DNA from: Deltaproteobacteria bacterium
GTDB taxonomy: Bacteria; SAR324; NAC60-12
Reading direction: 5' to 3'
Length of the DNA: 64,000 nt
Assembly: GCA_038150265.1 (NCBI GenBank)
Contig: JAYOTF010000005.1
Span: forward strand, 46,469-110,468
Each line of letters starts with the position of its first letter. Position 1 is the first letter of the stretch. Under the pieces are notes generated by a model. The model saw nothing but the letters and a program-made list of their open reading frames with translations. It had not been told where the DNA came from and ran no database searches. Shown in pieces: positions 3,834 through 36,241 of this stretch. Position numbers and translations under genes: made by a program.

Positions 3834-3921
3834 AAGAAATTCTCCTTTGTCTCAGGTTTCCGTCGCCCCTTCCTGCCGGTCATTCATGCAGCAAGGGGCC
3901 GATCGGGGTTCAGGTTGTGGA

Positions 3922-6285: not shown

Positions 6286-6295
6286 GAATTCCTCC

Positions 6296-6757: not shown

Positions 6758-6864
6758 GGTGGGTCCTCCTTCTAATTTGGGAGAGAGGGTTAAGGCGCCT
6801 CGTGAGAGCAGAAAGCGCGAATGTGATAGCACGCGGTGCTACCGAAAGTCAATGATTCCGAGTG

Positions 6865-7362: not shown

Positions 7363-7935
7363 CTAGCTCCGAGGCACCGGAGCCACCGCTTCCATGGGCA
7401 ACCCGGCTGCTTCCCAGGCCTCAATTCCGTCCTTGAACCAGGCGATGTGCGAGTAGCCCATTTCGGAGACACGCTTGACGGCGTTCCAGGACATCCAGCA
7501 ATTTGCTGTGCAGTAGAACACAATCCGGACCTCCGGATCAACAGCTGTTTGCGTCCTCATGAAATCCGAAAGGTAATTGAGCCACTCGGGGAGCAAGTCG
7601 CCGTGTCCAACGTTGGGAAGCCAGTAGCTGCCCGCAATGGCACGGTGGGGCTCGTCCCAGATGAAGCGCCCACTTCGGAACAGGGTGGGCTGAACGTCCA
7701 CCAGCACCAGCGGCTTCCCGTCCTGCCGCATGGCTTCCAGTTCCGCGACATGAACGGTCGCACCGCCTTCCGCCGCTTCTGGGGTCGGAAAGCTGTAGTG
7801 CATGATCCGGTAGCCATCGATGGTGAAGTATTCGTCTTCCCAATCATCCGAGGCTCCGGTATCCTGCGACCAAGCCGTGCTGCTCAGCAGCACTACTCCT
7901 AAAACTCCCACCACGAACCGCCTCATGAAACTCAT
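7363..7935 (-). CDS. PQQ-dependent catabolism-associated CXXCW-motif protein (rhodanese-like domain)
   Basis: Signal peptide MSFMRRFVVGVLGVVLLSSTAWSQ. Motif YCTANCWMSWNAVKRV (CxxCW). Alternative start at 7926. Confidence 0.8.
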   Translation of the reverse strand: MSFMRRFVVGVLGVVLLSSTAWSQDTGASDDWEDEYFTIDGYRIMHYSFPTPEAAEGGATVHVAELEAMRQDGKPLVLVDVQPTLFRSGRFIWDEPHRAIAGSYWLPNVGHGDLLPEWLNYLSDFMRTQTAVDPEVRIVFYCTANCWMSWNAVKRVSEMGYSHIAWFKDGIEAWEAAGLPMEAVAPVPRS

Positions 7936-8485
7936 CTTTGCCTTTTTTGTGTTTGTGCTGCTTGGCACACCAGCCGTCCTCCAGGCGGAAGGAGGAACGG
8001 AAAATACGGGGGTTGCCGCCCTGAAGGCCTATGCGGTCTTCAAAATGGGACGCTACGAAGAGTCCCTGGCCATGTGGCAAGCGCTCTCGGATCAGGGCAA
8101 CACCACCGCCATGATCAACCTTGCCAACCAGTACGAAAAGGGCCTAGGGACCCCGAAGGACCTCGATCAGTCCACCTTCTGGCTCACCAGGGCGGCGGAT
8201 CTGGGAGATCCGGTGGCGCAGTTGAACCTTGGCCTGGCCTATGAAGAAGGCCTCGGGGTGGAAAAGAACAACCGCACGGCTGCTCAGTACTTCCGGAAGG
8301 CAGCGGAGCAAGGCGACCGCGACGCTCAGTTCAACCTCGGTGTGATGCTGGCCACCAATTATGGAACCGACGCTCCTCCGGATGCGACGACTGTTGCCGA
8401 GGCCCGACGCTGGCTGACGGCAGCCAAAGAGGCCCGTCATCCGGACGCCGGTACCTTCTTGCAACTGCTTCCGCAGGAGCCGTGA
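7927..8485 (+). CDS. Sel1/TPR-repeat periplasmic protein
   Basis: Signal peptide MKLIFAFFVFVLLGTPAVLQA. Repeated Sel1-like blocks (AMINLANQYEKGLGTPKDLDQSTFWLTRAADLGDPVAQLNLGLAYEEGLGVEKN...). Confidence 0.75.
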
Positions 8486-9478
8486 TCAGCCTTCGGGCAG
8501 CACCCGGACCCCCCACGGGAAGCGTCCCACCTTGATGGACTTGAGCACCTTCAGGTCCTCCACGTCAATCACCGACACATCGCCACTGACCCCGTTGGTG
8601 GTGAGCAGCCGTTTTCCGTCGGGCGTGAGGTCCATGTGCCACACGCGCCGTCCCACCAGCAGGTACTTTTCCACTTCATAGGTTTCCGTGTTGACGACGG
8701 CCACGTGGTTGGCCGGCCCCAGGGCCACAAAGGCGAGGGTCTCATCCTGGTTGAAGCGGATGCCCACGGGCTGAATGCGGTTGGGGTGGATGCCCCGGAT
8801 CTTGAAGCCGAACTCCTTGACGGGTTCCTGCGTGGCCACATCAATCACGTGAATGGTCCCGCCGATCTCAGCCGAAGCCCAGACCAGGTTGCGGGTGTGC
8901 ATGAACTCCACGTGCCGGGGACGCTGTCCCACGAGTGTGTTGTGGACCAACTCCCGGGTTTCGGTGTTGATCCAGTGCAGCATGTTGGTGGTTTCAGACG
9001 TGTTGATCGCCCACTTGCCGTCTGGACTCACCGCCATGCCTTCCGGCTCCACGCCCACGTCAATCTGAGCCAGCACCTCCCGGGTTTCAGTATCGACAAC
9101 GGTGGCAATGTTGTCGTTCTCATTGGAAATGTAGAGGTCCCGGTTGTTGGGGTGCAGGGCAAACTGTTCCGGATCCTCTCCAGAGGGCAGGTTGTGGGTG
9201 ATCGTCCGGGTGGCGACATCCAGCACCTGCACGGTGTTGTCATCGCTGGCACAGATGAACAGGTGCTTGAAGTCCTTGCTGAAGATGATGCCCCGTGGAC
9301 GCAGCCCAACGGGAATCGTTTCGACCAGCTCGAGGGTCTTGAGGTCGATGACCGACAGGGTGTTGTCCTTCTCATTGGAAACCCACGCGGTTTGAGCCAG
9401 CGTCCATCCGGCTGAGCTGAGCCCCAGCACGCCCAGCACCCCCACTTTCCAGAGCTTAATCATCGTCTTCCTCGTCAA
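8486..9478 (-). CDS. PQQ-dependent catabolism-associated beta-propeller protein (YVTN repeat family)
   Basis: Signal peptide followed by repeated blocks: VSNEKDNTLSVIDLKTLELVETIPVG, YISNENDNIATVVDTETREV, FVALGPANHVAVVNTETYEV. Confidence 0.8.
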   Translation of the reverse strand: MTRKTMIKLWKVGVLGVLGLSSAGWTLAQTAWVSNEKDNTLSVIDLKTLELVETIPVGLRPRGIIFSKDFKHLFICASDDNTVQVLDVATRTITHNLPSGEDPEQFALHPNNRDLYISNENDNIATVVDTETREVLAQIDVGVEPEGMAVSPDGKWAINTSETTNMLHWINTETRELVHNTLVGQRPRHVEFMHTRNLVWASAEIGGTIHVIDVATQEPVKEFGFKIRGIHPNRIQPVGIRFNQDETLAFVALGPANHVAVVNTETYEVEKYLLVGRRVWHMDLTPDGKRLLTTNGVSGDVSVIDVEDLKVLKSIKVGRFPWGVRVLPEG

Positions 9479-9884
9479 ATTTGGATTTCTCTTCGTTCAG
9501 GACGCCGGCTTCAATGACGGCCTCGGCAATTCCTGCCTGGGCAACAATGCCGTCCCACGGCATGCCTGCGCGCCACTCGCCCTCATACATCGCCATGTCG
9601 GCACTGGCTTCCAGGCAGAGGCCTGAGGCAATTTCGGGATCGACCTCTTCCACCTCATCGGCTTCGACCGCCGCACAGATTTCCAGGCTTCCATAAAAGT
9701 ACCCCACGCCCTGGCCGTGAGGGACCCCGTCCTGGTCCTCTCCTTCGTACTCGGCCAGGTAGGCGTCCGGAAGCTCGGGTGTCCAGGTGAGGTCTTCGGT
9801 CAGGTAGAGTGAGTTGGCCAAGGTGGCTCCCGGCAGCAAACAGGTGCCCAGAAGCCCGATCAACAGAGAAGCAGTCGGTCTCAT
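9456..9884 (-). CDS. Hypothetical secreted protein with acidic C-terminus
   Basis: Start ATG overlaps upstream gene stop (ATGA coupling at 9881-9884). Signal peptide MRPTASLLIGLLGTCLLPGATLA. Ends ...EEKSKFDEEDDD. Confidence 0.5.
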   Translation of the reverse strand: MRPTASLLIGLLGTCLLPGATLANSLYLTEDLTWTPELPDAYLAEYEGEDQDGVPHGQGVGYFYGSLEICAAVEADEVEEVDPEIASGLCLEASADMAMYEGEWRAGMPWDGIVAQAGIAEAVIEAGVLNEEKSKFDEEDDD

Positions 9885-11059
9885 TGAAAGGCAGTACATT
9901 GGGATTCAGGTTGATCAAAGCCCAGGGTATCCAGCTCCGTTTTCGGGTGCAAAAACCCCTGTTGCGGAGACGTGGAAACGAGGGCACGTGGATGAACCAG
10001 CGGGATGGTCTGACGCAACTGGCCGTTCCAGGACCGGAAGTTCAGGCTCAGCCCCTTGAAGCCGGCAATCTTGAGCTGATCGCCAAGGAGGTACGTCCGG
10101 AGCGTTGTCGGGTCGGCGGCCTTGGTGCGAGTGACCGCCTCGCCGATGGCCCGCATCGCCACCCAGGCGGCATAATCCCGGGCCCGCATGTCACGGTCGG
10201 CGAGGCGCTGAAAGCGTTCCTGCAGCTGCACGGCGCCCCACTGCTCCACCACGCGGTCCCAGGTGGTGGCCACGAGTCCCTGAGTTCCCGCGACTGGGCG
10301 GGGGTCTCGGGTGTGGTAGGGCAGGTATTCGCCAAAGTCTCCGATTTCATCGGCCACGACGAGGATGTCGTACTCCTCTGGAATTTGCGTGAACAGGGGG
10401 AATTCCTGCTGCGCCAGCCGGCGCATGTCCGAGTCGAAGGTCCATTGCTTCTCGGCAACAATCTTGATGCCATACCGCTTGGCTGTCCGCTTGAGGGACG
10501 CGACGTAGAGCCGGTCGCCCGGCTTGTTTCCGGAGATGAGGAACCAGCGCTTCCACTTCATGGCAAGCAGGTACTGCCCGAGCGCATCAGTGAGCATGGC
10601 GCGGCTGGGCAGGGTGTGCAGCAGGTTGGCCTGGCACTGTTCCTCGCGGAGGGCATTTTCCGGGGCTCCCGCATTGAAAAGCAGCACATCGGAGCCGGTG
10701 GCCAATTCGGCTGCGCGTTGGGTTTCTGCCGCCGGTGCATTGAGAACCAGGTACTGGGTTCCGGAGGCAAGGACCTCCTGAACCGCAGCCTCCCAGTCTC
10801 CGCCAGTGGGAACCACGACTTCCTGCAACGTGTAGCTTTGTCCGAGAAAGCGTCCGGAGGCGAGGTTGTCCTGAATGCCAAGCCGAGCCCCCTGGAGGCC
10901 GAGGTCTTCTGGAACTTCATCCAGGTTGGAAAGCACCGGGGGGCGTTCCACTTGTTGCTCCAGGTACGTGACTGCGACCTCGAGTTTGGAGTTCGATTGC
11001 CCCCAGCCGGGAGCGGCGAGAACCATCAGAGCAGTGATCAGGAGGAGACGGAGCTTCAT
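9881..11059 (-). CDS. ABC-type periplasmic substrate-binding protein, PQQ-dependent alcohol dehydrogenase system (LivK-like fold)
   Basis: Signal peptide MKLRLLLITALMVLAAPGWGQ. About 390 aa of type-I PBP architecture. Embedded in the quinoprotein locus. Confidence 0.8.
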   Translation of the reverse strand: MKLRLLLITALMVLAAPGWGQSNSKLEVAVTYLEQQVERPPVLSNLDEVPEDLGLQGARLGIQDNLASGRFLGQSYTLQEVVVPTGGDWEAAVQEVLASGTQYLVLNAPAAETQRAAELATGSDVLLFNAGAPENALREEQCQANLLHTLPSRAMLTDALGQYLLAMKWKRWFLISGNKPGDRLYVASLKRTAKRYGIKIVAEKQWTFDSDMRRLAQQEFPLFTQIPEEYDILVVADEIGDFGEYLPYHTRDPRPVAGTQGLVATTWDRVVEQWGAVQLQERFQRLADRDMRARDYAAWVAMRAIGEAVTRTKAADPTTLRTYLLGDQLKIAGFKGLSLNFRSWNGQLRQTIPLVHPRALVSTSPQQGFLHPKTELDTLGFDQPESQCTAFQ

Positions 11060-11997
11060 TGCGGCGTCTGGATCAGAGAAAAGGTTTGGGCTTCGTATTT
11101 GGGATAAAGGTGAACCACGGAGCGTGCCAGCTCTTCCCGGAAGAGGGCAATGCTTTCAAACTCCTTGGGTGTGGGAGTTTGCATGACCTCGTTCATGTTC
11201 CGTCCCTTCATGCTGGCCCGCGCAAAGACCTCATGAAGCCACTGCAGGTGCTTCTGCGTCTGCTGGATGGGGCGGGTATCGGTGGCCGTTTCGCCATGTC
11301 CGGGCACCAGGAGGGTGAAGGGGAGCTGTTCCAACTCCTTGAGCGATTCCAGCCAGGCCGCAATCTGCGCATGCGGGGTCGCCAGGGCCCGGTTGTGGAA
11401 GACAATGTCTCCGGCAAACAGCACACCGGTGGTTTCATCAAAGATCGCCAGGTCGGCGCTCGTGTGGCCATGCAGGGCGATCAGGCGCAGGCGGTGCCCG
11501 CCAAACTCAACAGTCCCCGGAGCAAGCGTGTGTTGGGGAAGCCGCACATCGGTTCCCTGCATCGGGGCGCCGACGAGGCGGTAGAGGTTGTCCAGAAAGC
11601 CGGGGCCCTGCGTCTTGAGGCCCTCAATGGTCTTCGGAAGCGCATGGAGCTGATCGGCGTCAAAGGCCTGGTTGCCAAAGGCATGATCCGGGTGGTGGTG
11701 GGTGATCCAGACCTGCCAGATGGGCTGATCCGTCACCGTGGCAATGGCCTCCCGGAGCGCCTCGCCATAGAGCTTCGAGGGGCCGGAGTCGATCACGAGC
11801 ACCCCCTCCGGAGTGGTCACGAAGGAGATGTTGACAATGTTGCCGTGATTCTCCCGAGCGAGCCCCTCCTTTTTGCCAAACAGCACATACGTGTCCGGCG
11901 CCACCTGCTGGGGCTTGAGGTCGTAGAAGGACTTGCTCCAGCCAGGACTTGGCAGGAACAGCAGGCTGATCAGGCAGAGGCGGAGCAGCGGCATCAT
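11056..11997 (-). CDS. Quinoprotein relay system zinc metallohydrolase (MBL fold)
   Basis: Signal peptide MMPLLRLCLISLLFLPSPGWS. MBL motif WITHHHPDHAFG, plus later His/Asp ligands (HGHTSAD, GHG). Confidence 0.8.
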   Translation of the reverse strand: MMPLLRLCLISLLFLPSPGWSKSFYDLKPQQVAPDTYVLFGKKEGLARENHGNIVNISFVTTPEGVLVIDSGPSKLYGEALREAIATVTDQPIWQVWITHHHPDHAFGNQAFDADQLHALPKTIEGLKTQGPGFLDNLYRLVGAPMQGTDVRLPQHTLAPGTVEFGGHRLRLIALHGHTSADLAIFDETTGVLFAGDIVFHNRALATPHAQIAAWLESLKELEQLPFTLLVPGHGETATDTRPIQQTQKHLQWLHEVFARASMKGRNMNEVMQTPTPKEFESIALFREELARSVVHLYPKYEAQTFSLIQTPQ

Positions 11998-12800
11998 TGC
12001 ATGGGAAACTGTGAAGCCAGCAGGTCCGGAAGGCGCGTTTGGGATTCAATCACGCCTTCGACCTGGAGGCCATTGTTGTCACGGAAGGTGACCCGGTAGC
12101 CGGACTCAGCGTGGTGCGGATCCAGCGTCAGGGTGGGATTTTCCGCAACGGGCTCATGGAGGCGCAGGCGTCCGAGCAACTCGTCAGTGCTGGCCTCTCG
12201 AACTTCCACCGTTTCAATGATGAAGACGGGGATGCCGTCACTGAGTCCGGTGTCCATGGGGTGCATCAGGCGCACACGCAGGCGGTCGGTGGAGTCGTTT
12301 TCCGGCCAGACCTGTCCCCAGAGCTCGCCGTAGTGGTCCTCCCACGAGGCAATCTGCTGGCCGACGCTGGGCGTGGTGCAGCCTCCTCCTGCCGCATCGA
12401 TGTAGGCTCCACCCACGTGCCAGACGCCATCGGTGGTGCGCATGGCAGCTCGGACCACGGTGCCCTGCTGGACCTTGAGGCGTACGGAAATCGAGGGATC
12501 GGCGTGAACGGGCTCATACGAGAGGACCCGGATGATCGGGTTGAGGTCTGCCATGATCCGGACTTCCTCCACCTGGCCGTCTCCCCTCCAGTAGGCACTG
12601 ACGGGGACCTGCATGCTGTCTTCTGCAGAGGCAGGAAGCAGCACCTCTACCTGCGAGTCAAAGGCCACTGGGCCTCCGTCCAGGTGGTGCTCATGCACGT
12701 ACTCCCACATGGGGGACTGGTAGGGGTCTTCCGGGACAGCGGCCCACGCGGTCAGGCCTCCTAGCAGGGCCACCGTGGTGGCCAGGAACGATTTGATCAT
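11994..12800 (-). CDS. Quinoprotein dehydrogenase-associated SoxYZ-like carrier (SoxY-SoxZ fusion architecture)
   Basis: Secreted 268-aa protein with internal AAGGGCTTPS (SoxY-type GGCGG-like carrier-cysteine motif at the domain junction). 4-nt overlaps with both neighbours. Confidence 0.65.
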   Translation of the reverse strand: MIKSFLATTVALLGGLTAWAAVPEDPYQSPMWEYVHEHHLDGGPVAFDSQVEVLLPASAEDSMQVPVSAYWRGDGQVEEVRIMADLNPIIRVLSYEPVHADPSISVRLKVQQGTVVRAAMRTTDGVWHVGGAYIDAAGGGCTTPSVGQQIASWEDHYGELWGQVWPENDSTDRLRVRLMHPMDTGLSDGIPVFIIETVEVREASTDELLGRLRLHEPVAENPTLTLDPHHAESGYRVTFRDNNGLQVEGVIESQTRLPDLLASQFPMQ

Positions 12801-13516
12801 GCTTCCTCCTTATCAGGTGCGGAAAAGGTAAGCTCGCGACGCAACTCGGCCAGAAACTCGGCGTTTCGGTGTTCCCGAGGCTGGGTCAGGTGAGTCTCGT
12901 GTACAATGCCCCGGGCTTCCGGGCTGAAGAACAGGACTCGGTCGGCCAACTCCAGCGCCTCGTTGAGGTCGTGGGTGACAAAGAGCACCGCGCACTGGCG
13001 TTCCTCCCACAGCTCAAGGAGCAGGCGGCGGAGCAAAGCCGCGTTTTCTTCATCAAGTGAAACAAATGGCTCATCAAGCAGCAACAGGTCCGGCTGAATC
13101 GAGAACGCGCGGGCCAGCGAAACGCGACGGGCCATGCCCAGTGAGAGGTCTCCGGGATACGCCTGTCGGTAGTCGAGCAGGCCCATGCGCTTCAGGTAGC
13201 GGAGCGGGCGGTCGCTGGACCGTTCTTCCGGAGGCAGCACCAGCCGGAGGTTCTGCTCAATGGTCCGCCATGGCAGCAGCGTGGGCTCTTGAAAGACATA
13301 CGCCAGCCGCTGCTCAGGCGCTTGGTCAAAGCGGCCCTCGAAGTGCGGGTCAATGCCGGCGATGAGGTTCAAGAGGGTCGTCTTGCCACACCCGGAAGGG
13401 CCTGAGAGGGCAATGAACTCCCCTGGTGCCACGGTGATGGAAACATTTTCCAAAACCACCCGGGGAGGCTCGCCTGCGCGTCCCGGAAAGGCCTTGCGTT
13501 CCAGATCAATCTGCAA
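12797..13516 (-). CDS. ABC transporter ATP-binding protein (PQQ-ADH system transporter)
   Basis: Walker A GPSGCGKTT, signature LSLGMARRVSLARA, Walker B LLLLDEPFVSLDE. Confidence 0.9.
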   Translation of the reverse strand: MQIDLERKAFPGRAGEPPRVVLENVSITVAPGEFIALSGPSGCGKTTLLNLIAGIDPHFEGRFDQAPEQRLAYVFQEPTLLPWRTIEQNLRLVLPPEERSSDRPLRYLKRMGLLDYRQAYPGDLSLGMARRVSLARAFSIQPDLLLLDEPFVSLDEENAALLRRLLLELWEERQCAVLFVTHDLNEALELADRVLFFSPEARGIVHETHLTQPREHRNAEFLAELRRELTFSAPDKEEA

Positions 13517-13528
13517 CTGCCCTCACTT

Positions 13529-14281
13529 TCATGCTGGAACCGCCTTCCAGCGATTGGACCAGCGCTCAAGGGGTTGCAGGATCTGCCACTCAATCAACTG
13601 GACAACGACAATAAAAGCCGCACTGTAGGCCAGGATGCCGGCAACGTCAAATAGCTGGAAGTACGCGTGGAGCTGAAAGCCGACGCCGTTGCTGCGTCCG
13701 AGTAGCTCGACGACCAGGACGATCTTCCAGATGAGCGCCAGTCCGGAACGCGCTGCTGCGGCAAGGTAGGGAGCCAGTTGGGGCAGCAGGATGTGCCAAA
13801 AGCGGTCGGCCCAGGAGAGGCGGTAGCTGATGGCCAGCGCGTTGAACTGCGGGTTGAAGCTCCGGGCGCCTTCCCGCAGGATCACGGTGACGTTCGGGAC
13901 CTTGTTCAGGATGACGGCCAGCAACGCCGCTGCTTCCACCAGCCCCATGCTGAGGTAGCAGAGAATGATGGTCACCAATGCAGGGACGTTGAGCAGGATG
14001 ACCAGCCAGAGGTCCAGAGTGGAGTTGACTCGCTCGGAGCGCCCCATGGCAACCCCGATGAGGCTTCCGGTGAACATGGCAATCACAAAGCAGATCAGCA
14101 CGCGCTTGAGGGTGATGCCGAGGTGCCACCAAAGCTCCCCGCTCTGGGCTTCTTCCCAGAGTACCTCAAGGGTCTTGCCTGGGGTGGGCAAAAACGGAAT
14201 CCACTGTCCAGAGGCAGCCAGGTGCCACGCTCCGACAATCAGCAGTAAGGATCCCCACGCACCCCAGCTATGCTGCTTCAT
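13529..14281 (-). CDS. ABC transporter permease (NitT/TauT-type)
   Basis: Six predicted TM segments, binding-protein-dependent permease fold. Confidence 0.85.
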   Translation of the reverse strand: MKQHSWGAWGSLLLIVGAWHLAASGQWIPFLPTPGKTLEVLWEEAQSGELWWHLGITLKRVLICFVIAMFTGSLIGVAMGRSERVNSTLDLWLVILLNVPALVTIILCYLSMGLVEAAALLAVILNKVPNVTVILREGARSFNPQFNALAISYRLSWADRFWHILLPQLAPYLAAAARSGLALIWKIVLVVELLGRSNGVGFQLHAYFQLFDVAGILAYSAAFIVVVQLIEWQILQPLERWSNRWKAVPA

Positions 14282-15261
14282 GACTCGACGTCAGCCACTC
14301 CCCAGAAGGTGCCTTCGGCCAGCTGCGTGCTGTCGCCAATGAGCTTCTTGCCACCCAGTTTTCCCAAAATCCGGAAGAGCTTTTTGGCATCCCGGACCCC
14401 GGCTGCTGTGACGGGTTGGGGGGTGCCTTCGAGGTAACCCCGCTTGAGCTGCTCAAATTCCGCATCGTTCCTGGTTCCCATCTTGGGACGGAGCGAAGTC
14501 CAGGCGTCCGGATTGCGAGCGAGCAGGTCCTTGGCGCTGGTGGAGGCCTGAACCATCCCGGCGACTGCTTCAGGGTTGGCCTTGGCCCAGTCTTCCATGA
14601 AGATGTACCCCAGCATCGGCACCTGCTCCGTGATGCCAAGCTGAGGAGCAACGTCGGTCAGGTTCATCAGGCGCTTCATGCCGGCCGCCTCAAGCTTGGC
14701 GGCAAAGTGCCAGTAGGTGATCACGGCGTCGACGCGTCCAGCCTGCAGCTCCTTGCTCAGCAGCGGCGGTGCGCCAAAGACCTTCTCGATGGAATTGAGA
14801 TCCAGGTTGTCCTGCTGCCCAAGGGCCTGCAGCATGAGCCAGCCCTTGGAGAGGGCGCCACCGACCACTCCGAGCTTCTTCCCTTCGAGGTCCTTGACGG
14901 AGGTGATGCCCGAGTCCGGACGGATCATCAGGCCACCGACCGAGGACGAGTAGGGGACAAAGCTAAAGGCGTGGCCCTGGTCGCGCATCCGGGAAACCCA
15001 CATCCAGTCGGCAACCGCAACATCGGCAGCGCCCTGCTGAACGGCCATCCGGGTGGCACCAATGTCGGCGAGTTCCAGAATCTCCAACTCAATGCCGGCC
15101 TGGCGGTCCAGTCCGTTTTCCACAATGGCATTCAACTCCCAGTTGACCGTACCGGTTTTGGTACTGGCAACGCGAACCGTGGTTGCGGCGGCGGCAGAGC
15201 TCAGCAAGAGGCCTGAGACGGCAACCGCCAGAAATCGTTTAATCAGCATCGTTCTCCTCAT
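14278..15261 (-). CDS. ABC transporter substrate-binding protein (NMT1/NitT/TauT family)
   Basis: Signal peptide MLIKRFLAVAVSGLLLSSAAAA. About 320-aa periplasmic SBP immediately upstream of the permease and ATPase. Confidence 0.8.
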   Translation of the reverse strand: MRRTMLIKRFLAVAVSGLLLSSAAAATTVRVASTKTGTVNWELNAIVENGLDRQAGIELEILELADIGATRMAVQQGAADVAVADWMWVSRMRDQGHAFSFVPYSSSVGGLMIRPDSGITSVKDLEGKKLGVVGGALSKGWLMLQALGQQDNLDLNSIEKVFGAPPLLSKELQAGRVDAVITYWHFAAKLEAAGMKRLMNLTDVAPQLGITEQVPMLGYIFMEDWAKANPEAVAGMVQASTSAKDLLARNPDAWTSLRPKMGTRNDAEFEQLKRGYLEGTPQPVTAAGVRDAKKLFRILGKLGGKKLIGDSTQLAEGTFWGVADVES

Positions 15262-16202
15262 TCAGGGTTCAGGTACTCCGGAAGCCGGTAGGTCATGCCG
15301 TATTGGGCATAGATCTTCTCCATGGTGCCGTCATTCACCATTTGAGTTACCTGGTCTTCCAACGCATAGCCGAGGTCACGAGAGTCCTGCCGGACGGCCA
15401 TTCCGATGTCCCATTCGGTCCGCGGTTCAGCCATTTCGTAGGTGCACTCCGCCTCAATTTCAACTTTTGAGGTCCAGTCTTTTTTGATGTCGGGGCAGCG
15501 GATCACGCGTTGAGGAGTGAGAAGCCCGGCGAGAGGGGGCTGGAACACGTTGATGTTCTCGGTCTCCGAGAGCATGCTTTCCACAGGGCCGGATAGGCCC
15601 ATGACGGCGGCGACCTCTCCGGTGCGGAGCGCGTCCGTTGCTGCAGTCAGGTTGGGGTAGCGGACAATGCCGCGGTTGAGGCGTCCCCCAAACATGCCGG
15701 ACAGGATGAAGTCCGGAATGCTGTCCAGTTCCACACCCACCTTCTCATACATGAAGATGGCGTAATTGGGGAACGACTCAATCTTGCGGACGTCGTGCGC
15801 CAGCAAGAAGGTTTCAGACTGGTAGGGGGCCGTGATGACGACGAGCTCGTTCCGGAGGGCAAACTCCAGATCAAAGGGGATGCGGAGCATGAAGTCCGCC
15901 ACCTCCCAGTTCCGGATGGCGTTGCCTTTTCCAACAGCCACCCGCAGGTCGGCATCCACGTTTTCCCCGGCCTCATGCCAGTGCCAGCGGGGCTCCACCC
16001 CGAGCCGTCGGGCGATCTCTCGCCCAATCTCGACATCAGAGCCTCGCGGTTCCCCATTCTCCTGATAGGAAAAGGGGGGGAAGTCGGTGTACACGGCAAT
16101 GGAGATGTACCCCGACTCCATGACGTCATCCAGCAAGCGGGCACTGGCCGAACTGAGTGAGACCAGTAACGCCGCGAGGATGCAGAACGCTTTATTCCAC
16201 AT
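15258..16202 (-). CDS. Quinoprotein dehydrogenase-associated periplasmic solute-binding protein (XoxJ/MoxJ-like, SBP family 3)
   Basis: Start MWNKAFCILAALLVSLSSASA at 16202. Family-3 SBP features. Directly downstream of the cytochrome gene. Confidence 0.75.
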   Translation of the reverse strand: MWNKAFCILAALLVSLSSASARLLDDVMESGYISIAVYTDFPPFSYQENGEPRGSDVEIGREIARRLGVEPRWHWHEAGENVDADLRVAVGKGNAIRNWEVADFMLRIPFDLEFALRNELVVITAPYQSETFLLAHDVRKIESFPNYAIFMYEKVGVELDSIPDFILSGMFGGRLNRGIVRYPNLTAATDALRTGEVAAVMGLSGPVESMLSETENINVFQPPLAGLLTPQRVIRCPDIKKDWTSKVEIEAECTYEMAEPRTEWDIGMAVRQDSRDLGYALEDQVTQMVNDGTMEKIYAQYGMTYRLPEYLNPE

Positions 16203-16611
16203 GGACCGTATCCAGCCAGCTGCGGATCGCCCACATGGCTTCTTGGCTAAAGACCTCTTCAAAGGCCGGCATGTAGGTCATCCCGTTGCGGATGACCCCG
16301 TTGCGGATGCGCATCAGGAACCACTCGTCGCCTTCCATCCCCACCGGCAGCATGCGCAGGTCGGGGGCAATGCCGCCCGAGATGGCCTCAAGGCCGTGGC
16401 AGCGGGCGCAGTTTTGGTTGTAGGCCGAGGCGCCAATTTCAATGGCCCGCTCGTTTCCGCGGTAGGGGTTTTCATCCAGCCACTCGTCACCCAAAGGCTC
16501 CAGGCCACTGGTGTCGACCAACTGCGGAGTGACATCGCCATGGGAGAAAGCTGAGCCCGTCCATCCGACGAGGCCAATGAAGAGAGCAAATGCGCTAACA
16601 ATGAGTCTCAT
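16192..16611 (-). CDS. Cytochrome c550 (PedF/ExaB-type electron acceptor of the PQQ dehydrogenase)
   Basis: Signal peptide MRLIVSAFALFIGLVGWTGSAFS. Single haem motif CARCHG. About 139 aa. Confidence 0.8.
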   Translation of the reverse strand: MRLIVSAFALFIGLVGWTGSAFSHGDVTPQLVDTSGLEPLGDEWLDENPYRGNERAIEIGASAYNQNCARCHGLEAISGGIAPDLRMLPVGMEGDEWFLMRIRNGVIRNGMTYMPAFEEVFSQEAMWAIRSWLDTVHVE

Positions 16612-16714
16612 GATCCATCCAAAAATTGGGGGTTTGGAGTCTGGCAACGTGGAGGAGGCGGAGGCGGGACCGGTCATGAGCTTCCGCGTCTCCATGCTGA
16701 CGAAGGTTCCGGTG

Positions 16715-16762
16715 TCTGGGAAGAAAACCAGGGAATGAAAGGGAGGAGCCGAAGCTCCTCCC
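16715..16762 (-). terminator. Intrinsic terminator/attenuator between the PQQ dehydrogenase gene and the cytochrome gene
   Basis: On the minus-strand RNA: GGGAGGAGC-UUCG-GCUCCUCCC (9-bp GC stem, UUCG tetraloop) followed by UUUCAUUCCCUGGUUUUCUUCC. Confidence 0.55.
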
Positions 16763-16768
16763 GGGAAC

Positions 16769-18556
16769 TCAGTTGCTGCCGAGTTGCAGCGTGTCCTTCT
16801 GGTTGTTGTAGGTGCTCAGCTTCGGAAGCTTGAAGGTCCAGACCATGCCACCCTGGTTGAGGTAGTTGACGGTCTTGGCGACTTCACCGCCCCACAGCGG
16901 AACGGCTCCGCCCCATCCGGACACGACGGTGACGTACTGCTCACCGTCCATGCGCCAGGTGACGGGGGATCCGACGATTCCGGAACCGGTCTGGAACTTC
17001 CAGAGGGTCTCACCGGTCTCATCATCAACCGCCATGAATTGGCCTTCCGGAGTTCCGTAGAACACCAGTCCTCCACCCGTGGTCAGCACGCCACCCCACA
17101 GCGGAGCGTTGTTGCGCTTTTCCCACTTGATGTCACCCGTGCGGGGATCGATCGCCTTGAGGGCGCCGATGTAGTCCTCATGCAGCGGCTTGATGGTGAA
17201 GCCGGCTCCGAGGTAAGCCGCACCTTTTTTGTAGGTGACGGGCTCGTTCCAGAGGTCCATCGCCCAGGAGTTGGACGGCACGTAGAAGTTGCCGGTGCGC
17301 TGGCTGTAGGCCATCGGCATCCAGTTCTTTCCACCGAGGAAGGACGGGTAGACCACGATCGGCTCACCCTTGTCCTGGCCGGCCGGATTTCCGGGGCGCA
17401 GCTGGTTCGGAAGCGGACGGCAGTTTTCGTCCAGTCCCTCGGTCCAGTTCACTTCCACAAACGGAAGGGCGCGGATGCACTTGCCGTTCTCACGGTTGAG
17501 GACGTAGAAGTGTCCGTTTCGGTCGGCCTTGGCGCCGGCCTTGATGGTGCGACCGGTCTTGGGGTCGATGTAGTCAAAGGAGACGAACTCGTTGACGCCA
17601 TCATAGTCCCAGTGGTCATTCGGAGTGCCCTGGAAGTGCCACTTGATGACGCCGGTGTTGACGTCGATGGCGAGGGTGGAGGTGCTGTAGAGGTTGTCCC
17701 CCTTGCGCAGGTACGCGTTCCAGGGAGCCGGGTTGCCGGTTCCGAAGAAGGCGAGGCCGGTGTCCGGGTCGTAGGTGCCGCCCAGCCAGGTGGCTGCGCC
17801 GCCGAACTTCCACATTTCACCCGGCCAGGTCTTGCCTGCGGCACCACCCGTGATGCCGTTGTCCTTGCCGTTCAGGGTGCCCATGTGGCCCTCAACGGTG
17901 GGGCGGGACCAGACCAGCTCACCGGTGTTGACGTCACGAGCCTCAACTTTTCCGACAATGCCGAATTCACCCCCGGACACTCCGGTGATGACCATGCTGT
18001 TGACGACCAGCGGAGCGGCGGTGTAGGAGTACCCGGCTTTGTAGTCTCCCAGCTTCTTGCTCCAGACGACCTTCCCGGTTTTCTTGTTCAGCGCCACGAG
18101 CTTGGCATCCAGGGTGCCGAAGATCACCTTGTCTCCGCTCAGAGCGGCGCCACGGTTGACCACGTCACAGCACGGCATGATGCCGTCTGGGAGGCGAGCC
18201 TCGTACTGCCACAGCTCCTCTCCCGTCCGGGCATCGACCGCGAACAGGCGAGAGTAGGAAGCGGTGACGTACATCACGCCATCTTCGATGAGCGGCTGGG
18301 TTTCCTGTCCACGCTGCTTCTCACCGCCAAAGGAGAAGGCCCAGGCGGGGAGCAGGTTTTGGACGTTGTCCTTGTTGATGTCGGTCAGCGGACTGTAGCG
18401 CTGGCCTTGCGGTCCCAGTCCGGTCCCCAGAACGTCCTCAACGCTGTTTTGGTCATTGAGGATTTCGGCGTCCGTGGTGGCCAGAGCTGGCCCGGCTGGA
18501 AGCGCGAGGAGTGCTGCTGCGGCCAGGCCGAAGTAGCTCATGTTTCGTTTTTTCAT
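16769..18556 (-). CDS. PQQ-dependent alcohol dehydrogenase, lanthanide-dependent type (PedH/ExaF/XoxF-like)
   Basis: Signal peptide, vicinal CC ([10 protein letters not shown]), propeller W-motifs. WDYDG (catalytic Asp plus the extra Asp diagnostic of Ln coordination). 595 aa. Confidence 0.95.
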
Positions 18557-18758
18557 CGGTTGTGCCCCCGTGAAAAGGTTTTGAGTCAGTCAAAAGTGGG
18601 CAAGGTGCCCCTTGGTTTCCCTGGGAGACGCCCAAGCACCGGTCGCTCCGGAACGTCTCACCACTACCCAGAAACCCGAACCCTCGGGCTTGCAGGTACA
18701 TCCGTCCCTCCCGAAGCAGGGACTTTGACAGGGGGACAGATTAGCGCCCCCCAAGATA

Positions 18759-18775
18759 GAATGCTTGCTGCATTC
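18759..18775. promoter_or_regulatory. Palindrome GAATGC-N5-GCATTC about 200 bp upstream of the PQQ dehydrogenase start
   Basis: Perfect 6-bp arms with 5-nt spacer. No flanking U-tract, so not an intrinsic terminator. Candidate regulator site. Confidence 0.3.
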
Positions 18776-18825
18776 TCCAAAAAAATAGAAGTATTGTACC
18801 GCTCCCGGTGAGCTCATTGGCGTTT

Positions 18826-19788
18826 TCAGGCAAGCGCACGCGCCTGCTGCCGCTGGGGGTCCAGGACCCGAAACGCCTGACGCTGGCGCGCCTGGAACTG
18901 CTTCGGGGTGACGCCCTTGATGCTCTTGAAGAGGTTGATGAAGTAGCTCACTGAGGTGAAGCCCATCATGAAGCAGACCTCTGTGACCGAGTGGTCCGGG
19001 TGCTGCAGCAACTGACAGGCGCGGTCGATGCGGAGCTGGTTGATGTACTGAACGGGCGTGAAGCCGAATTCATTCTTGAAGCACCGGAAGAGGTTGGTCT
19101 TGCTCATCCCTGCGTGCTTGGCCAGTTCCTCAATGGAAATGGCGCGGTGCAGGTTCTTCTTGATGAACTCAGCCGCCTCGGAGAGGCTGTGACAGGGTGC
19201 ATGCTGGCTACTGTTCCAGAGCCACCTCGACGAGGCATCAAACTGCAGCATCCGGATCACCAGCTCCATGACCTTGACGTCAATGAGCTTGTCCCGAAGC
19301 GGGTGATTTTCGGTGAACACGGTCACCAGGTTGGCCACAATGCCTTCAATCTGGACCGAGTTGCGAAAGTGGTACTGGTTGTTCGGGTCGTAGCGCCACT
19401 CTCCCGATTCCTCTGCCCGAGGCATCTGCTCATTCATCCGTCCCACAATCTGCTGGACCTTCTGGGTGTCGATCTCCACCGTCAGGCACTTGGTCGGTTG
19501 CTCCAGCTGAGCTTCCGGGAAATCGATGTGGATTTCCTCACCGGGAGGCACCACCAGAGACTCTCCGGGCAAAAAGTCGAAGAGTGGATAGCTTTTGAAG
19601 TGGATGACCTTGCGGCCTGTGACCATGCCGCAGTACAGAGGATTGGAAGAACTGAGCGCGACCCGCTCGGCACGCTGGTAGGTGTCATAGACCGAAAACT
19701 CCGTGTCTTCGCCTCCGAAGACGGTCCGGTTCTCGATCAACTTCAACGGTTTGTGGGTCCGCTGGATGCGCTGAAGTTGTTGTTCCAT
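18826..19788 (-). CDS. AraC-family transcriptional regulator
   Basis: Start MEQQLQ at 19788 with GGAGGTG RBS. C-terminal AraC HTH (AGMSKTNLFRCFKNEFGFTPVQYINQLRIDRACQLL). Confidence 0.9.
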   Translation of the reverse strand: MEQQLQRIQRTHKPLKLIENRTVFGGEDTEFSVYDTYQRAERVALSSSNPLYCGMVTGRKVIHFKSYPLFDFLPGESLVVPPGEEIHIDFPEAQLEQPTKCLTVEIDTQKVQQIVGRMNEQMPRAEESGEWRYDPNNQYHFRNSVQIEGIVANLVTVFTENHPLRDKLIDVKVMELVIRMLQFDASSRWLWNSSQHAPCHSLSEAAEFIKKNLHRAISIEELAKHAGMSKTNLFRCFKNEFGFTPVQYINQLRIDRACQLLQHPDHSVTEVCFMMGFTSVSYFINLFKSIKGVTPKQFQARQRQAFRVLDPQRQQARALA

Positions 19789-20053
19789 GTACACCTCCGT
19801 GACCTTCCCAAGTGCGGGCCCCATGCCACTCACTTGGCGTCGGACACACTAGTGACTCGCCCTCGTCATGTCAAGCCGAACCCCCACCAGAGTCCCTATA
19901 TTTTTCCCAGCCGCCGTCGCCATTTCGCTTCCGCATTTTCCTCCTCTTTCCTACACTCTTTTTCCTGGTTCTCACGTAGGGAACCTCCTTCAGGCATTTC
20001 TGGTCGGAGCCTGGTGTTTGGAGGCCTTCCCCCATCCTCATCCTGGAGCCTGT

Positions 20054-23932: not shown

Positions 23933-24211
23933 GGTTGTCTCCGTTGGAAGATGAGGAAAAAAGAGCGACATGCTCAGCGGACCGAGTGGGAGCGTCTGCT
24001 GAAGCAACTCCAGGTCGTGCTTTCGTGGCCAGGAAGGCGCTGCGGAAAGCCCGAAGGAAGCACACCGCGACACGTGATTGGGGGAAAGAATCGGGGGGCT
24101 TTTTCATGTTTCTTGAAGATATGTCTTGAAACGCGATTTATTAAATCACATTTTATAGCCCTTCTTGCTTCCTGAAGAAGGAGGCTCAATTTTTCAGACT
24201 TGAGGAGAAAC

Positions 24212-25204
24212 ATGATCAAGCTCAACAAATGGCTTCGCGCTTTCCTGTTCGCCTCGGCTTCTTTGATTTGGGCCGGCACCGGAATGGCACAAGACTGCCC
24301 TCGGGGCGATCTTGACAGTCGTTTTTGTGACCGGAACGGCGACTTGGTGGCTGATGCTCCGGCAGATTCAGGAGACTGGGTCAATCCGAACACCCTGATC
24401 TTTGCGTACACTCCGGTGGAGGACCCTGCGGTCTACAAAACGGCTTGGTCGGACTTTCTCACCCACATGGAGGAGGTGACGGGCAAGAAGGTCATCTTCT
24501 TCCCGGTTCAATCGAATGCCGCTCAGATCGAGGCGATGCGTTCCGGACGGTTGCACATTGCGGGCTTCAACACGGGCTCCAACCCCTTGGCGGTCAACTG
24601 CGCGGGCTTTGTCCCGTTCACGATCATGGCCAGCCTGGACGGGCACTTTGGTTACGAGATGGAGATCATCACGTATCCCGGAAGCGGAATCAAGGAGGTG
24701 GCCGACCTCAAGGGCCGTCAATTGGCGTTCACCTCACCGACTTCGAACTCGGGCTTCAAGGCCCCGTCTGCGATCCTCAAGGCCGAGTTTGACCTGCTTC
24801 CGGACCGCGACTTTGACACGGCCTTCTCGGGAAAGCATGATAACTCAATCCTCGGGGTTGCCAACAAGGACTATGACGCCGCGTCGATTGCCAACTCCGT
24901 CAAGTCTCGCATGATCCTCCGGGAGGTCATTCAGGAAGATGACGTCATCACGATCTACAAGTCCCAGACGTTCCCGACGACCGGGTTTGGTCACGTTTAC
25001 AACCTGGATCCGACGCTGGCCGCCAAGGTGCGCGATGCCTTCTTCAGCTTTGAGTGGGACCGTCCGGATGGCACCCCAACCACACTGAAGGAAGAGTTTT
25101 CCAAGTCCAACGAGGGGCAATTCATTCCGATTACCTACCAGGAGCACTGGGCGGTCATCCGGACCATTGACAAAGCCAATGGGGTCTCCTACGCCTGCAA
25201 GTAA
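24212..25204 (+). CDS. phnD: Phosphonate ABC transporter substrate-binding protein
   Basis: ATG at 24212 with GAGGAG RBS. Signal peptide MIKLNKWLRAFLFASASLIWAGTGMA. PhnD-family sequence, followed by phnC and two phnE. Confidence 0.85.
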   Translation: MIKLNKWLRAFLFASASLIWAGTGMAQDCPRGDLDSRFCDRNGDLVADAPADSGDWVNPNTLIFAYTPVEDPAVYKTAWSDFLTHMEEVTGKKVIFFPVQSNAAQIEAMRSGRLHIAGFNTGSNPLAVNCAGFVPFTIMASLDGHFGYEMEIITYPGSGIKEVADLKGRQLAFTSPTSNSGFKAPSAILKAEFDLLPDRDFDTAFSGKHDNSILGVANKDYDAASIANSVKSRMILREVIQEDDVITIYKSQTFPTTGFGHVYNLDPTLAAKVRDAFFSFEWDRPDGTPTTLKEEFSKSNEGQFIPITYQEHWAVIRTIDKANGVSYACK

Positions 25205-25216
25205 CCTCTAAAACGA

Positions 25217-25234
25217 GTCCGCCTTCGGGCGGAC
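25217..25234 (+). promoter_or_regulatory. Intercistronic stem-loop between phnD and phnC
   Basis: GTCCGCC-TTCG-GGCGGAC: 7-bp stem with UUCG tetraloop, no U-tract. Typical SBP-distal mRNA-stabilising hairpin. Confidence 0.5.
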
Positions 25235-25249
25235 GGCCTCCAATGCTTC

Positions 25250-26059
25250 ATGCTTGAACTGAAACAACTGGTCAAACGGTACCGAACCGGAGACCAGGCC
25301 CTCAAAGGGGTCGACCTGGTGGTGCCGGCGGGCCAGGTTCTGGCCCTCATTGGCCCCTCGGGTGCCGGAAAGTCCACCCTGATCCGCTGCATCAATCGAC
25401 TGGTGGAACCCACTTCTGGCGCCGTGCTGCTCCATGGAGAGAACCTCACCCGGTTGCGTGGCAACAGCCTCCGGAAGGCCCGGCGACGCATCGGGATGAT
25501 CTTCCAGGAGTATGCGCTGGTGGAGCGCCTCAGTGTGATGGAAAACGTGCTCTCCGGGCGACTGGGGTACGTTGGGTTCTGGAACAGCTACTTCCGTCGC
25601 TTTCCTCAAACGGATGTGGACACCGCGTTTTCGCTGCTGGAACGCGTGGGGCTGGACCACATGGCAGACAAACGGGCCGACGAACTCTCCGGCGGGCAAC
25701 GGCAACGGGTGGGCATCGCCCGAGCGCTGATCCAGAATCCGGAGCTGCTCCTGGTGGATGAGCCGACGGCGAGCCTGGACCCCAAGACGTCTCGGCAGAT
25801 CATGCGCCTGATCACGGAGCTGTGTACCGAGCGGAAGCTGGCGGCGATCATCAACATCCATGACGTGGCGCTGGCACAGATGTTTTCGGAACGCATCGTC
25901 GGGCTTCAGGCCGGAGCCGTGGTGTACGATGGCTCGCCCGATGGACTGGTTCCGGAGGTGCTGACCCAGATCTATGGAGAAGAGGACTGGACCGCCGTCC
26001 GGAAGAAGAAGGCCGCAGCGGCTGCCGCGGATCCCAATGAGCTGGAGGATCAACTGTGA
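25250..26059 (+). CDS. phnC: Phosphonate ABC transporter ATP-binding protein
   Basis: [43 protein letters not shown]. Walker A/B. PhnC-type N-terminus. Confidence 0.9.
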
Positions 26060-26850
26060 CCGCCTCACGTACGTGGAAGCGCAAGCCCCTGATTGAGAAT
26101 CCGACGCTGCGGTGGAGCCTGCTGCTGGGCACAGCGCTTTACCTGGTCCTGGCCGTGGGCTCGGTGGAGGTCAACTGGACCCGTGTTTACGAAGGCCTGG
26201 ACCGTGGGGCGAAGTTTCTGACCGCATTTGCCCAGCCCAACTTCTCGGGACGCTGGCAGGACATTTCGGAGGGGCTGCTGGAGAGTCTGGTCATGACGGT
26301 GGTCTCCACCGGAATTGGCATTGTGATCTCGCTGCCCATTGCCTTGGGAGCATCCCGGAACCTGGCGCCGTTGCCCATTTACCTGCTGTGCCGGTCGATC
26401 ATCACGCTGTCCCGGACCTTTCAGGAGGTGATCATTGCGATCCTCTTTGTGGCCATCTTCGGGTTTGGGCCCTTTGCGGGGGTGCTGACGATTTCGTTTG
26501 CGACCATTGGCTTCCTGGCCAAGTTGCTGGCGGAGGCAATTGAGAACATTGAGGCGAGTCAGGCCGAGGCCATCCGTTCAACGGGGGCCCGCTGGTGGCA
26601 GTGGCTGAATTATGGCATCCAGCCACAGGTGATGCCGCGCTTCATTGGCCTGTCTCTCTACCGTCTGGACATCAACTTCCGCGAGTCGGCCGTGGTCGGG
26701 CTCGTGGGGGCCGGAGGCATTGGAGCCACGCTCAACACCGCCTTTGACCGCTACGAGTTTGACACCGCAGCGGCGATTCTGATTCTGATCATTGGCATTG
26801 TGATGTTCGCCGAGTACTCGTCCAGTGCCATTCGCAAGCGGGTGCAGTGA
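26056..26850 (+). CDS. phnE: Phosphonate ABC transporter permease
   Basis: PhnE-type permease, 4-nt overlap with phnC. Confidence 0.85.
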
Positions 26851-27665
26851 TGCCAGTTGAACTCAAGGGAACTACCCAGGTCTGGAAGTACCGGAACCGC
26901 AAGGAGCAGCTCACCAGCTGGGCGCTCTGGTTCTTCGGCACGCTGCTGTTTCTCTGGTGCTGGCAGCTCGTCTCTGAAAAAACGGAGTGGTTCTTTGTCC
27001 TGGATGCTCCGAACATTGCGGCAGACATTGGGTCGCGGATGCTGCCTCCGCGCTGGAGCTACCTGGATCAGCTCTGGGAGCCGCTTTGGGACACCCTGAA
27101 CATCGCCACGCTGGGAACGCTGCTGTCGCTCGTCCTGGCGGTTCCGGTGGCGTTTCTGGCCGCTCGGAACACGTCTCCGAGTCCCACGCTGCTGCGTCCG
27201 GTGGCCTTGCTGATCATTGTCTCCTCGCGTTCCATCAACTCCCTGATCTGGTCGCTGCTGCTGGTCTCCATTCTGGGGCCGGGTGTGCTGGCAGGGATCA
27301 TTGCGATTGCCCTGCGCTCCATTGGCTTTGTCGCCAAGCTGCTGTACGAGGCGATTGAGGAGATTGATGAGTCGCAGGTGGAAGCGATCACCTCAACCGG
27401 AGCCGGCCGTTCGCAGGTCATTGCCTTCGGAATTGTGCCCCAGATCCTTCCGACCTTCGTGGGCGTGTCGGTGTTCCGCTGGGACATCAACATTCGTGAG
27501 TCCACGGTGCTGGGGCTGGTTGGAGCCGGAGGCATCGGCTTGCAGCTTCAGGCGTCCCTGAACGTGCTGGCGTGGCCTCAGGTGACCCTGATCCTCTTGA
27601 GCATTCTCCTGACTGTGGTGCTCAGCGAATGGCTTTCGGCAAAAGCCCGCCACGCGATCATCTGA
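26847..27665 (+). CDS. phnE: Phosphonate ABC transporter permease (second PhnE)
   Basis: Paralogous to the preceding permease. 4-nt overlap. Confidence 0.85.
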   Translation: MMPVELKGTTQVWKYRNRKEQLTSWALWFFGTLLFLWCWQLVSEKTEWFFVLDAPNIAADIGSRMLPPRWSYLDQLWEPLWDTLNIATLGTLLSLVLAVPVAFLAARNTSPSPTLLRPVALLIIVSSRSINSLIWSLLLVSILGPGVLAGIIAIALRSIGFVAKLLYEAIEEIDESQVEAITSTGAGRSQVIAFGIVPQILPTFVGVSVFRWDINIRESTVLGLVGAGGIGLQLQASLNVLAWPQVTLILLSILLTVVLSEWLSAKARHAII

Positions 27666-27668
27666 CCC

Positions 27669-28322
27669 ATGCAGGCCTTCTCCCTCTTCCGGAAGCAGCG
27701 ACACGTTGAGGACCTGCTGCAGCACCTGCTCCGCAGCCTCGAAGACCTCGCCCTGAACTTTCGGGAGGCGATGGCGGACTACCTCAACGTCCAGCTGGAC
27801 TCGTGTCAGCAGCGCGCCCAAGAGGTGGATCGGCTGGAGTCGGAGCTGGATGAACTGCACCGCAAGATTCAGCTGCTGCTGCTCCGGGAGGCGCTGATGC
27901 CCGACTCCCGGGACGACGTGTTGCGGCTGCTGACGAAGCTGGATCGCATTCCCGGGCAGTGTCGGCATTCCCTGAAGGAGGTCCTGCTGGAACGCCCCCC
28001 CCTGCCTCCGGACTTTCAAGTGCCGTTGCTCCGGCTACTTGACAAGACGCACGCCAGCATCCGGGCCCTCAGCGCAACCATTGATGCCCTTTTTTCGGAC
28101 TTGCGGTCGGTCCGCCGGAATGCCGAGGAGGTGGCCCGTCAGGAAAGTGAAGTGGACCGGGTGGAGCAGGAGCTGCTGCAGCGCGTCTTTCAGGATGAGA
28201 CCCTGGAGCTGGCCCGGCAGTTTCAGTACAAGTCCTTCTTGCAGCGGCTGGGGGGCATTTCGGATCTGGCGGAAGACGTTGCCGATGAGGCGCTGCTGGT
28301 TGCCACCAAGCGACTCGCCTGA
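27669..28322 (+). CDS. DUF47 (TIGR00153) PhoU-like phosphate-transport regulator-related protein
   Basis: Helical 217-aa protein directly after phnE. DUF47 proteins usually pair with PiT transporters. Confidence 0.65.
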   Translation: MQAFSLFRKQRHVEDLLQHLLRSLEDLALNFREAMADYLNVQLDSCQQRAQEVDRLESELDELHRKIQLLLLREALMPDSRDDVLRLLTKLDRIPGQCRHSLKEVLLERPPLPPDFQVPLLRLLDKTHASIRALSATIDALFSDLRSVRRNAEEVARQESEVDRVEQELLQRVFQDETLELARQFQYKSFLQRLGGISDLAEDVADEALLVATKRLA

Positions 28323-28324
28323 GG

Positions 28325-36236: not shown

Positions 36237-36241
36237 GATGC

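Follow-up and report, generated by a model that had tools for sequence, protein, structure and literature searches.

Organization of the locus

We analyzed a 64,000-nt stretch of DNA, referred to here as the window, which contains a PQQ dehydrogenase gene together with a ped-like cluster. The genes and features of the cluster, in order of position, are as follows.

7363..7968 (-): CXXCW-motif rhodanese-like protein of PQQ-dependent catabolism, PP_2666-like (TIGR03865, 163.5 bits, cutoff 128)
7820-8485 (+): Sel1-repeat gene, on the opposite strand between the pedA2-like and CXXCW genes
8486..9478 (-): PedA2-like beta-propeller protein of PQQ-dependent catabolism (TIGR03866, 507.3 bits, cutoff 287.3)
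9881..11059 (-): PedA1-like substrate-binding protein of the PQQ-alcohol-dehydrogenase-associated ABC type (TIGR03863, 500.6 bits, cutoff 413.6)
11056..11997 (-): quinoprotein relay system zinc metallohydrolase, SoxH-like and PP_2678-like (TIGR04558, 399.9 bits, cutoff 300)
11994..12800 (-): SoxYZ-like carrier, PP_2677-like (TIGR04557, 183 bits, cutoff 140)
12797..15261 (-): PqqT-type ABC system of three genes, named from the PqqT homology of its binding protein
12797-13516 (-): ABC ATPase of this system, NitT/TauT-like by profile
13529-14281 (-): ABC permease of this system, NitT/TauT-like by profile
14278-15261 (-): PqqT-like solute-binding protein of this system (PqqT structures 9B1U/9B1V)
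about 15258..16202 (-): PedG-like periplasmic SBP_bac_3 protein, divergent, in the place of PedG/XoxJ/MxaJ (position and domain)
16192..16695 (-): cytochrome c550 of the PedF/ExaB type, haem motif CARCH (TIGR04494, c550_PedF equivalog)
16741..16762 (-): GC-rich hairpin with a 9-bp stem and a TTCG loop, then TTTCATT (consensus scan)
16769..18556 (-): PQQ alcohol dehydrogenase, PedH-type (PQQ-ADH type 2b), 595 aa (TIGR03075)
18826..19833 (-): AraC-family regulator, directly upstream of the dehydrogenase gene on the same strand (NCBIfam AraC-type matches)

The 595-aa protein matches TIGR03075, the methanol/ethanol-family profile of the eight-bladed propeller quinoproteins, over profile positions 5-530 of 530 with a score of 753 bits (cutoff 480.05). 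Codon position bias (GC3 of 0.80) identifies the minus strand as the coding strand at 16769-18556. An ORF of 675 aa on the opposite strand (16784-18811, +) was rejected as a gene and is a shadow ORF of this 61% GC genome; long antisense ORFs in the window were generally taken as such. A G-rich stretch precedes the start ATG of the dehydrogenase at 18556. The N-terminus resembles a Sec signal peptide, the alignment to the mature PedH chain begins at residue 26, and a periplasmic location is predicted. Environmental sequences contain the identical protein on three independent short contigs from other assemblies, and the nearest cultured relatives are those of marine Gammaproteobacteria, at ~70% identity.

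The first-pass annotation had proposed a short PedF-like c550 rather than a cytochrome cL as the partner of the dehydrogenase, and the profile searches agree: the adjacent cytochrome scored 207.9 bits against TIGR04494 (cutoff 122), and its profile matches included none to a cytochrome cL. A PedF-type cytochrome homologue adjoins the dehydrogenase gene in 65 of 80 related genomic loci, and the c550 is the predicted electron acceptor of the enzyme. Ahead of the cytochrome gene, 6 nt past the dehydrogenase stop, lies the strong GC hairpin GGGAGGAGC-TTCG-GCTCCTCCC with its T-rich tail. A consensus scan of the region returned 4 hairpin sites with 3.8 expected, and the site at 16741-16762 is at most faintly suggestive of a terminator or attenuator. 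It may act as a partial terminator that gives a high ratio of dehydrogenase to accessory transcripts.

The gene after the cytochrome owes the name PedG-like to its position and its SBP_bac_3 domain only, because no MoxJ/XoxJ-type NCBIfam model and no full solved structure was reached by its product. The Pfam SBP_bac_3 match is confined to ~45 N-terminal residues, and PDB matches span only the first ~50 aa. An independent gene call gave it 314 aa. A homologue (median identity 36%) follows the cytochrome gene in 66 of the 80 loci, and the protein belongs to a divergent, uncharacterized PedG/XoxJ-like family. On the other side of the dehydrogenase, the AraC-family protein at 18826-19833 carries AraC_N and HTH_AraC domains in the independent gene call and is a candidate local regulator; among the related loci it is kept only in L001, a colinear locus from the related MAG 'Co_bin_836_permissive'.

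The solute-binding protein at 14278-15261 matched the PqqT structures 9B1U and 9B1V with E = 4e-61 and 38.5% identity over 288 aa. PqqT is a periplasmic PQQ-binding protein of M. extorquens whose contacts to PQQ have been described (PMC11331073). In 12 of the 80 loci, PqqT-type homologues lie no more than 10 kb from the PedH-type gene, and pedBC were also present in 8 of these 12. The idea that the embedded ABC system replaces pedBC is thus unsupported, and we regard the system as an accessory rather than a replacement because the two occur side by side in most of the loci that carry it.

The remaining genes of the cluster include two of the four components of the PedA1A2BC transporter. The gene matching TIGR03863 was equated with pedA1 through the table in PMC12997753, and pedA1 and pedA2 are present while pedB and pedC are missing, so that the transporter is incomplete in the window. 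No match to pedC was found in the window, and pedB returned only generic ATPase matches of 31-37%; the ATPase of the cluster reached 93.6 bits against TIGR03864 (pedB), for which the cutoff is 302. In P. putida and in the related locus L004, pedB (TIGR03864) and pedC (TIGR03861) lie between pedA2 and the CXXCW gene, where the window has the Sel1-repeat gene. Locus L001 resembles the window in this respect, with a Sel1-repeat gene and no pedB or pedC at that place. Among the 80 loci, pedB was found in 35 and pedC in 32, L004 being one example. P. putida requires pedB and pedC when its growth depends on PedH and lanthanide is low (PMC12997753). No pedS2/pedR2-like pair adjoins the dehydrogenase gene, and pedS2/pedR2 and pedI had no match among the scanned genes. 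Pfam and NCBIfam scans of the likely-gene ORFs of the window returned no pqq biosynthesis genes, no lanmodulin and no TonB-dependent lanthanide receptor.

The other genes scanned in the window serve housekeeping and transport and are unrelated to the cluster. Positions 2979-6832 (-) encode a three-subunit molybdenum/FAD/[2Fe-2S] oxidoreductase; its best models are the alpha, beta and gamma subunits of glyceraldehyde dehydrogenase and the large subunit of aerobic CO dehydrogenase, all below curated cutoffs. It could provide the aldehyde-oxidizing step instead of an NAD-dependent PedI, to which no scanned gene of the window had a match. The region 24200-29377 may be a phosphorus-scavenging island. 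It contains a phosphonate-type ABC transporter (binding protein 24200-25204, ATPase 25250-26059, and two ORFs at 26056-27665 as the presumed permeases), after which come a PhoU-like gene and a phosphate transporter of the PHO4 family. At 35235-39814 (-), a pyruvate:ferredoxin/flavodoxin oxidoreductase of 1190 aa is followed by a dihydroorotate-dehydrogenase-like gene.

Metal site and lineage of the dehydrogenase

The first-pass annotation had pointed to a WDYDG motif in which a second Asp stands two residues past the catalytic Asp, and this is borne out by the translation. The sequence D-x-D occurs only twice in the protein, at aa 263 and aa 317, and the latter begins at the catalytic Asp. The elements of the site are as follows.

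aa 316-320, nt 17597-17611 (-): WDYDG motif (translation and alignments to PedH, XoxF, ExaA and MxaF)
nt 17606-17608 (-): D317, catalytic and metal-binding Asp (alignment)
nt 17600-17602 (-): D319, extra lanthanide-coordinating Asp by alignment
C129-C130: vicinal cysteines, ExaA C105-C106 (full-length alignment)
E197: Glu ligand, ExaA E179 (full-length alignment)
N275: Asn ligand, ExaA N266 (full-length alignment)
D317: catalytic Asp, ExaA D316 (full-length alignment)
R346: Arg, ExaA R344 (full-length alignment)

An alignment with characterized enzymes had been proposed as the check on the second Asp. We carried it out as HMMER pairwise alignments and as a MAFFT alignment of six proteins, and no gaps were found around the motif. 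Thus aligned, D319 falls in the column of the second Asp of PedH (6ZCW, DFD), of XoxF of SolV (4MAE, DYD) and of XoxF of M. buryatense (6DAM, DYD). At this position ExaA (1FLG, DFS) has Ser318 and MxaF (1H4I, DYA) has Ala305. The MxaF comparison fragment is identical to residues 258-434 of 1H4I and includes D303-Y-A305. In the HMMER pairwise alignments the surroundings of the motif read as follows.

PedH: HDGW-D-F-D-GVNE
XoxF (M. buryatense): HDEW-D-Y-D-GINE
ExaA: NDAW-D-F-S-GNNE

The residue before the motif Trp (aa 315, nt 17612-17614, -) is His in the window, in L001 and in L067 only, giving HWDYDG; it is Gly in the other 77 related loci, Ala or Thr in ExaA-type copies, and Glu in MxaF and XoxF5.

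In a search against all solved structures, the best match was the lanthanide enzyme PedH of P. putida (6ZCW/6ZCV, 857 bits), followed by the calcium enzyme ExaA (1FLG, 656 bits), the XoxF methanol dehydrogenases 4MAE, 6DAM and 6OC5 (about 340-366 bits) and several MxaF structures (about 290 bits). Identity to PedH is 66.9% over 553 aligned residues, compared with 55.4% to ExaA, and both PedH and the window protein lack three insertions (6, 9 and 8 aa) that ExaA has. Among the best 120 database proteins, 83 have D-F-D and 37 have D-Y-D at the motif. The primary gene encodes D-[FY]-D in all 80 related genomic loci, in which it is 66-72% identical to the window protein except for the near-identical copy in L001. 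A second copy lies within 10 kb in 24 of these loci; all 24 second copies have D-F-S and are 51-56% identical. Because D-[FY]-D is found in 120/120 homologues and 80/80 primary loci and DFS in 24/24 second copies, the match of D319 to the metal-coordinating position is, on sequence grounds, not one of chance. The census also bears on the 'DYD' signature named in the first-pass annotation: the second Asp stands, but the middle Tyr is not part of the signature. With 83 D-F-D and 37 D-Y-D proteins among the closest 120, the middle residue (Tyr here, Phe in PedH) does not discriminate, and the proper signature is D-x-D. The identities, the shared deletions and the contrast between D-x-D and DFS copies thus argue for placing the dehydrogenase in the PedH-type lineage, which PMC11996626 names PQQ-ADH type 2b.

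These comparisons also bear on whether the enzyme is functionally a methanol dehydrogenase, with an XoxF-like role in methylotrophy, and not a broad-range ethanol/alcohol enzyme. The window protein does carry the DYD triplet of XoxF, and some methanol activity has been reported for ExaF (PMC11996626) and PedH (PMC5487730). However, the window protein scores ~365 bits to the XoxF structures against 857 to PedH, its partner is a PedF c550 and not cytochrome cL/XoxG, methylotrophy genes were not seen among the scanned window genes, and PedH oxidizes methanol ~14-fold more slowly than ethanol (PMC5487730). We consider a methanol dehydrogenase very improbable.

The published basis for the second Asp as a marker is sound. 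It had been claimed at the outset that this residue separates lanthanide from calcium enzymes, and both the alignment (Ser in ExaA, Ala in MxaF) and the literature uphold the claim (PMC5487730; bioRxiv 10.1101/2020.02.25.964783). Position 295 is Ser in PedE and Asp in PedH. The latter shows no activity with Ca2+; it works with La, Ce, Pr, Nd and Sm and, weakly, with Gd and Tb, and the Kd is 25-75 nM (PMC5487730). Lanthanide function is lost in XoxF1 D320A and in ExaF D319S (bioRxiv 10.1101/2020.02.25.964783). A global-ocean survey used D-x-D as a diagnostic motif (PMC11996626). The marker nevertheless rests on a handful of enzymes, and catalysis that depends on Ln3+ and fails with Ca2+ has been demonstrated for PedH, ExaF and XoxF only. 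For the enzyme of the window, lanthanide dependence is strongly predicted.

D-x-D may over-predict lanthanide dependence, in which case a protein with a PedH-type sequence would work with Ca2+ or with either metal. The motif is also present in the membrane glucose dehydrogenase, which was characterized with Ca/Mg, and type 2b alcohol dehydrogenases show metal heterogeneity and are not uniformly of one metal type (PMC11996626). XoxF1 produced without La binds Ca2+ (bioRxiv 10.1101/2020.02.25.964783). The genes missing from the window, namely pedB/pedC, the pqq genes, a lanthanide receptor and lanmodulin, count against the lanthanide-enzyme reading, and the lack of pedB/pedC favors use of Ca2+ or either metal. 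Against this, Ca2+ does not activate PedH, the closest relative to have been characterized, with 67% identity (PMC5487730), Ca-loaded XoxF1 has little or no activity (bioRxiv 10.1101/2020.02.25.964783), and the calcium type forms a clearly separate DFS lineage in 24/24 two-copy loci. On balance we believe that there is only a small chance that the enzyme works with Ca2+ or with either metal.

A second PQQ dehydrogenase was not found in the 64-kb window, where the next best match in a tblastn search with the enzyme had E = 0.17. The earlier statement that no calcium-type paralogue is present therein is correct for these 64 kb; the lack of a calcium-type copy holds for this stretch only and says nothing on the rest of the genome.

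Conservation of the dehydrogenase gene

The window was compared with L001, to which it has ~82% nucleotide identity. The dehydrogenase is 98.7% identical in amino acid sequence to the protein encoded at positions 10001-11785 of L001, while neighboring genes are 62-94% identical. With a dN/dS of 0.018 and a dS of 0.41 it ranks lowest among 11 cluster genes on both measures; the rest of the set ranges over 0.04-0.20 in dN/dS and 0.51-1.08 in dS. These values indicate that the dehydrogenase is under strong purifying selection. The reduced dS probably reflects codon-usage constraint from high expression. Recent horizontal transfer of the gene was considered and rejected, since the nucleotide sequences agree to no more than 88-95% and almost every difference is synonymous; this pattern and the dN/dS of 0.018 are what purifying selection with codon bias, and not transfer, would leave.

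The same values bear on whether the gene is decaying or non-functional and the motif a relic. No evidence supporting decay was found. The ORF is intact and full-length alignment placed the complete set of active-site residues (C129-C130, E197, N275, D317, D319 and R346), the dN/dS is the lowest among the 11 cluster genes, and the same protein occurs in three other assemblies, so that we give this explanation practically no weight. The analysis supports an intact and ordinary predicted member of the known family of periplasmic alcohol dehydrogenases that use rare-earth metals in place of calcium, with the customary set of helper genes around it.

Proposed function and comparison with known systems

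The enzyme is most likely a periplasmic PQQ-dependent alcohol/aldehyde dehydrogenase of the PedH/ExaF kind that uses a light lanthanide (La-Sm) and not Ca2+, and we hold this reading with high confidence. A PedH-like PQQ-Ln3+ site is predicted because the C129-C130 ring, E197, N275, D317, R346 and D319 are all kept. By analogy with the family, the protein would be secreted into the periplasm and would receive PQQ and a light lanthanide as cofactors. The Ln3+ would act as a Lewis acid on the C5 carbonyl of PQQ and D317 as the base that takes the alcohol proton. Electrons from reduced PQQ would then pass through the disulfide ring to the c550 encoded by the next gene and on to the respiratory chain. 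Extrapolation from PedH, at 67% identity, gives primary and secondary alcohols of C2-C8 and aldehydes as the probable substrates, with methanol a poor one.

The dehydrogenase is surrounded by a ped-like module, in which the PedG-like protein may serve in maturation or binding, next to the SoxYZ-like, SoxH-like and CXXCW trio. The PqqT-type ABC system in this module would plausibly handle exogenous PQQ, and the pedA1 and pedA2 products are putative homologues of a lanthanide uptake system. A more far-reaching reading is that the lanthanide enzyme is the sole quinoprotein alcohol dehydrogenase of this uncultured lineage, with no calcium back-up and no PedBC importer, and that PQQ is salvaged through the PqqT-type ABC system. 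We think this unlikely; if true, the locus would be a module for alcohol oxidation that obligately scavenges both rare earths and PQQ.

The dehydrogenase is a routine addition to a well-described family. It extends by one the list of alcohol dehydrogenases of uncultured bacteria for which rare-earth dependence is predicted, and it opens no new question. It fits the picture of lanthanide-type PQQ dehydrogenases as widespread in the ocean, where they outnumber calcium types (PMC11996626). The practical worth lies in correct annotation, with the gene as a marker of lanthanide use. Mildly unusual are the lack of a calcium-type copy and of pedBC within 64 kb and the embedded PqqT-type transporter, and the locus can serve as a compact example of a PedH-type cluster with a PqqT-type transporter and without pedBC.

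The calcium-dependent ethanol dehydrogenases ExaA (P. aeruginosa, 1FLG) and PedE share the fold, the family, the disulfide ring, the E/N/D ligands and the c550 partner with the window protein. ExaA differs in having Ser318 in place of D319, in its identity of 55.4% and in the three insertions absent here. The XoxF enzymes (4MAE, 6DAM, 6OC5) agree with the window protein in the aligned D-Y-D triplet and in their cofactor logic but are far more distant, at about 340-366 bits compared with 857 for PedH; they have a cytochrome cL-type partner (XoxG) and methanol as the physiological substrate (PMC11331073). PedH itself (PP_2679 of P. putida KT2440, 6ZCW/6ZCV, type 2b) differs from ExaA by the same indels as the window protein and agrees with it in the metal and PQQ ligands, the extra Asp among them, and in the pocket residues equivalent to F412 and W561. 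The middle residue of the motif is Phe in PedH, whereas the window protein has Tyr, with His before the Trp, and a C-terminal extension of 15 aa relative to PedH.

At the level of the cluster, genes of the window match one-to-one PP_2675-2678, PP_5538, PP_2669 and PP_2666 of the P. putida ped cluster (reference table in PMC12997753). The order differs from that of P. putida, with the dehydrogenase first in the window, then the cytochrome, then the pedG-like gene. PedE, pedB/pedC, PedS2/PedR2 and pedI of the P. putida cluster were not found in the window, which instead has an adjacent AraC-type regulator and the embedded PqqT-type ABC system, unlike the P. putida reference. Compared with PqqT of Methylorubrum extorquens (9B1U), the window binding protein keeps the PQQ contacts T41 and G112 and the key K142, while N143 is replaced by Gly. 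PQQ binding is predicted for this homologue, which sits inside the PedH-type cluster with a permease and an ATPase of its own.
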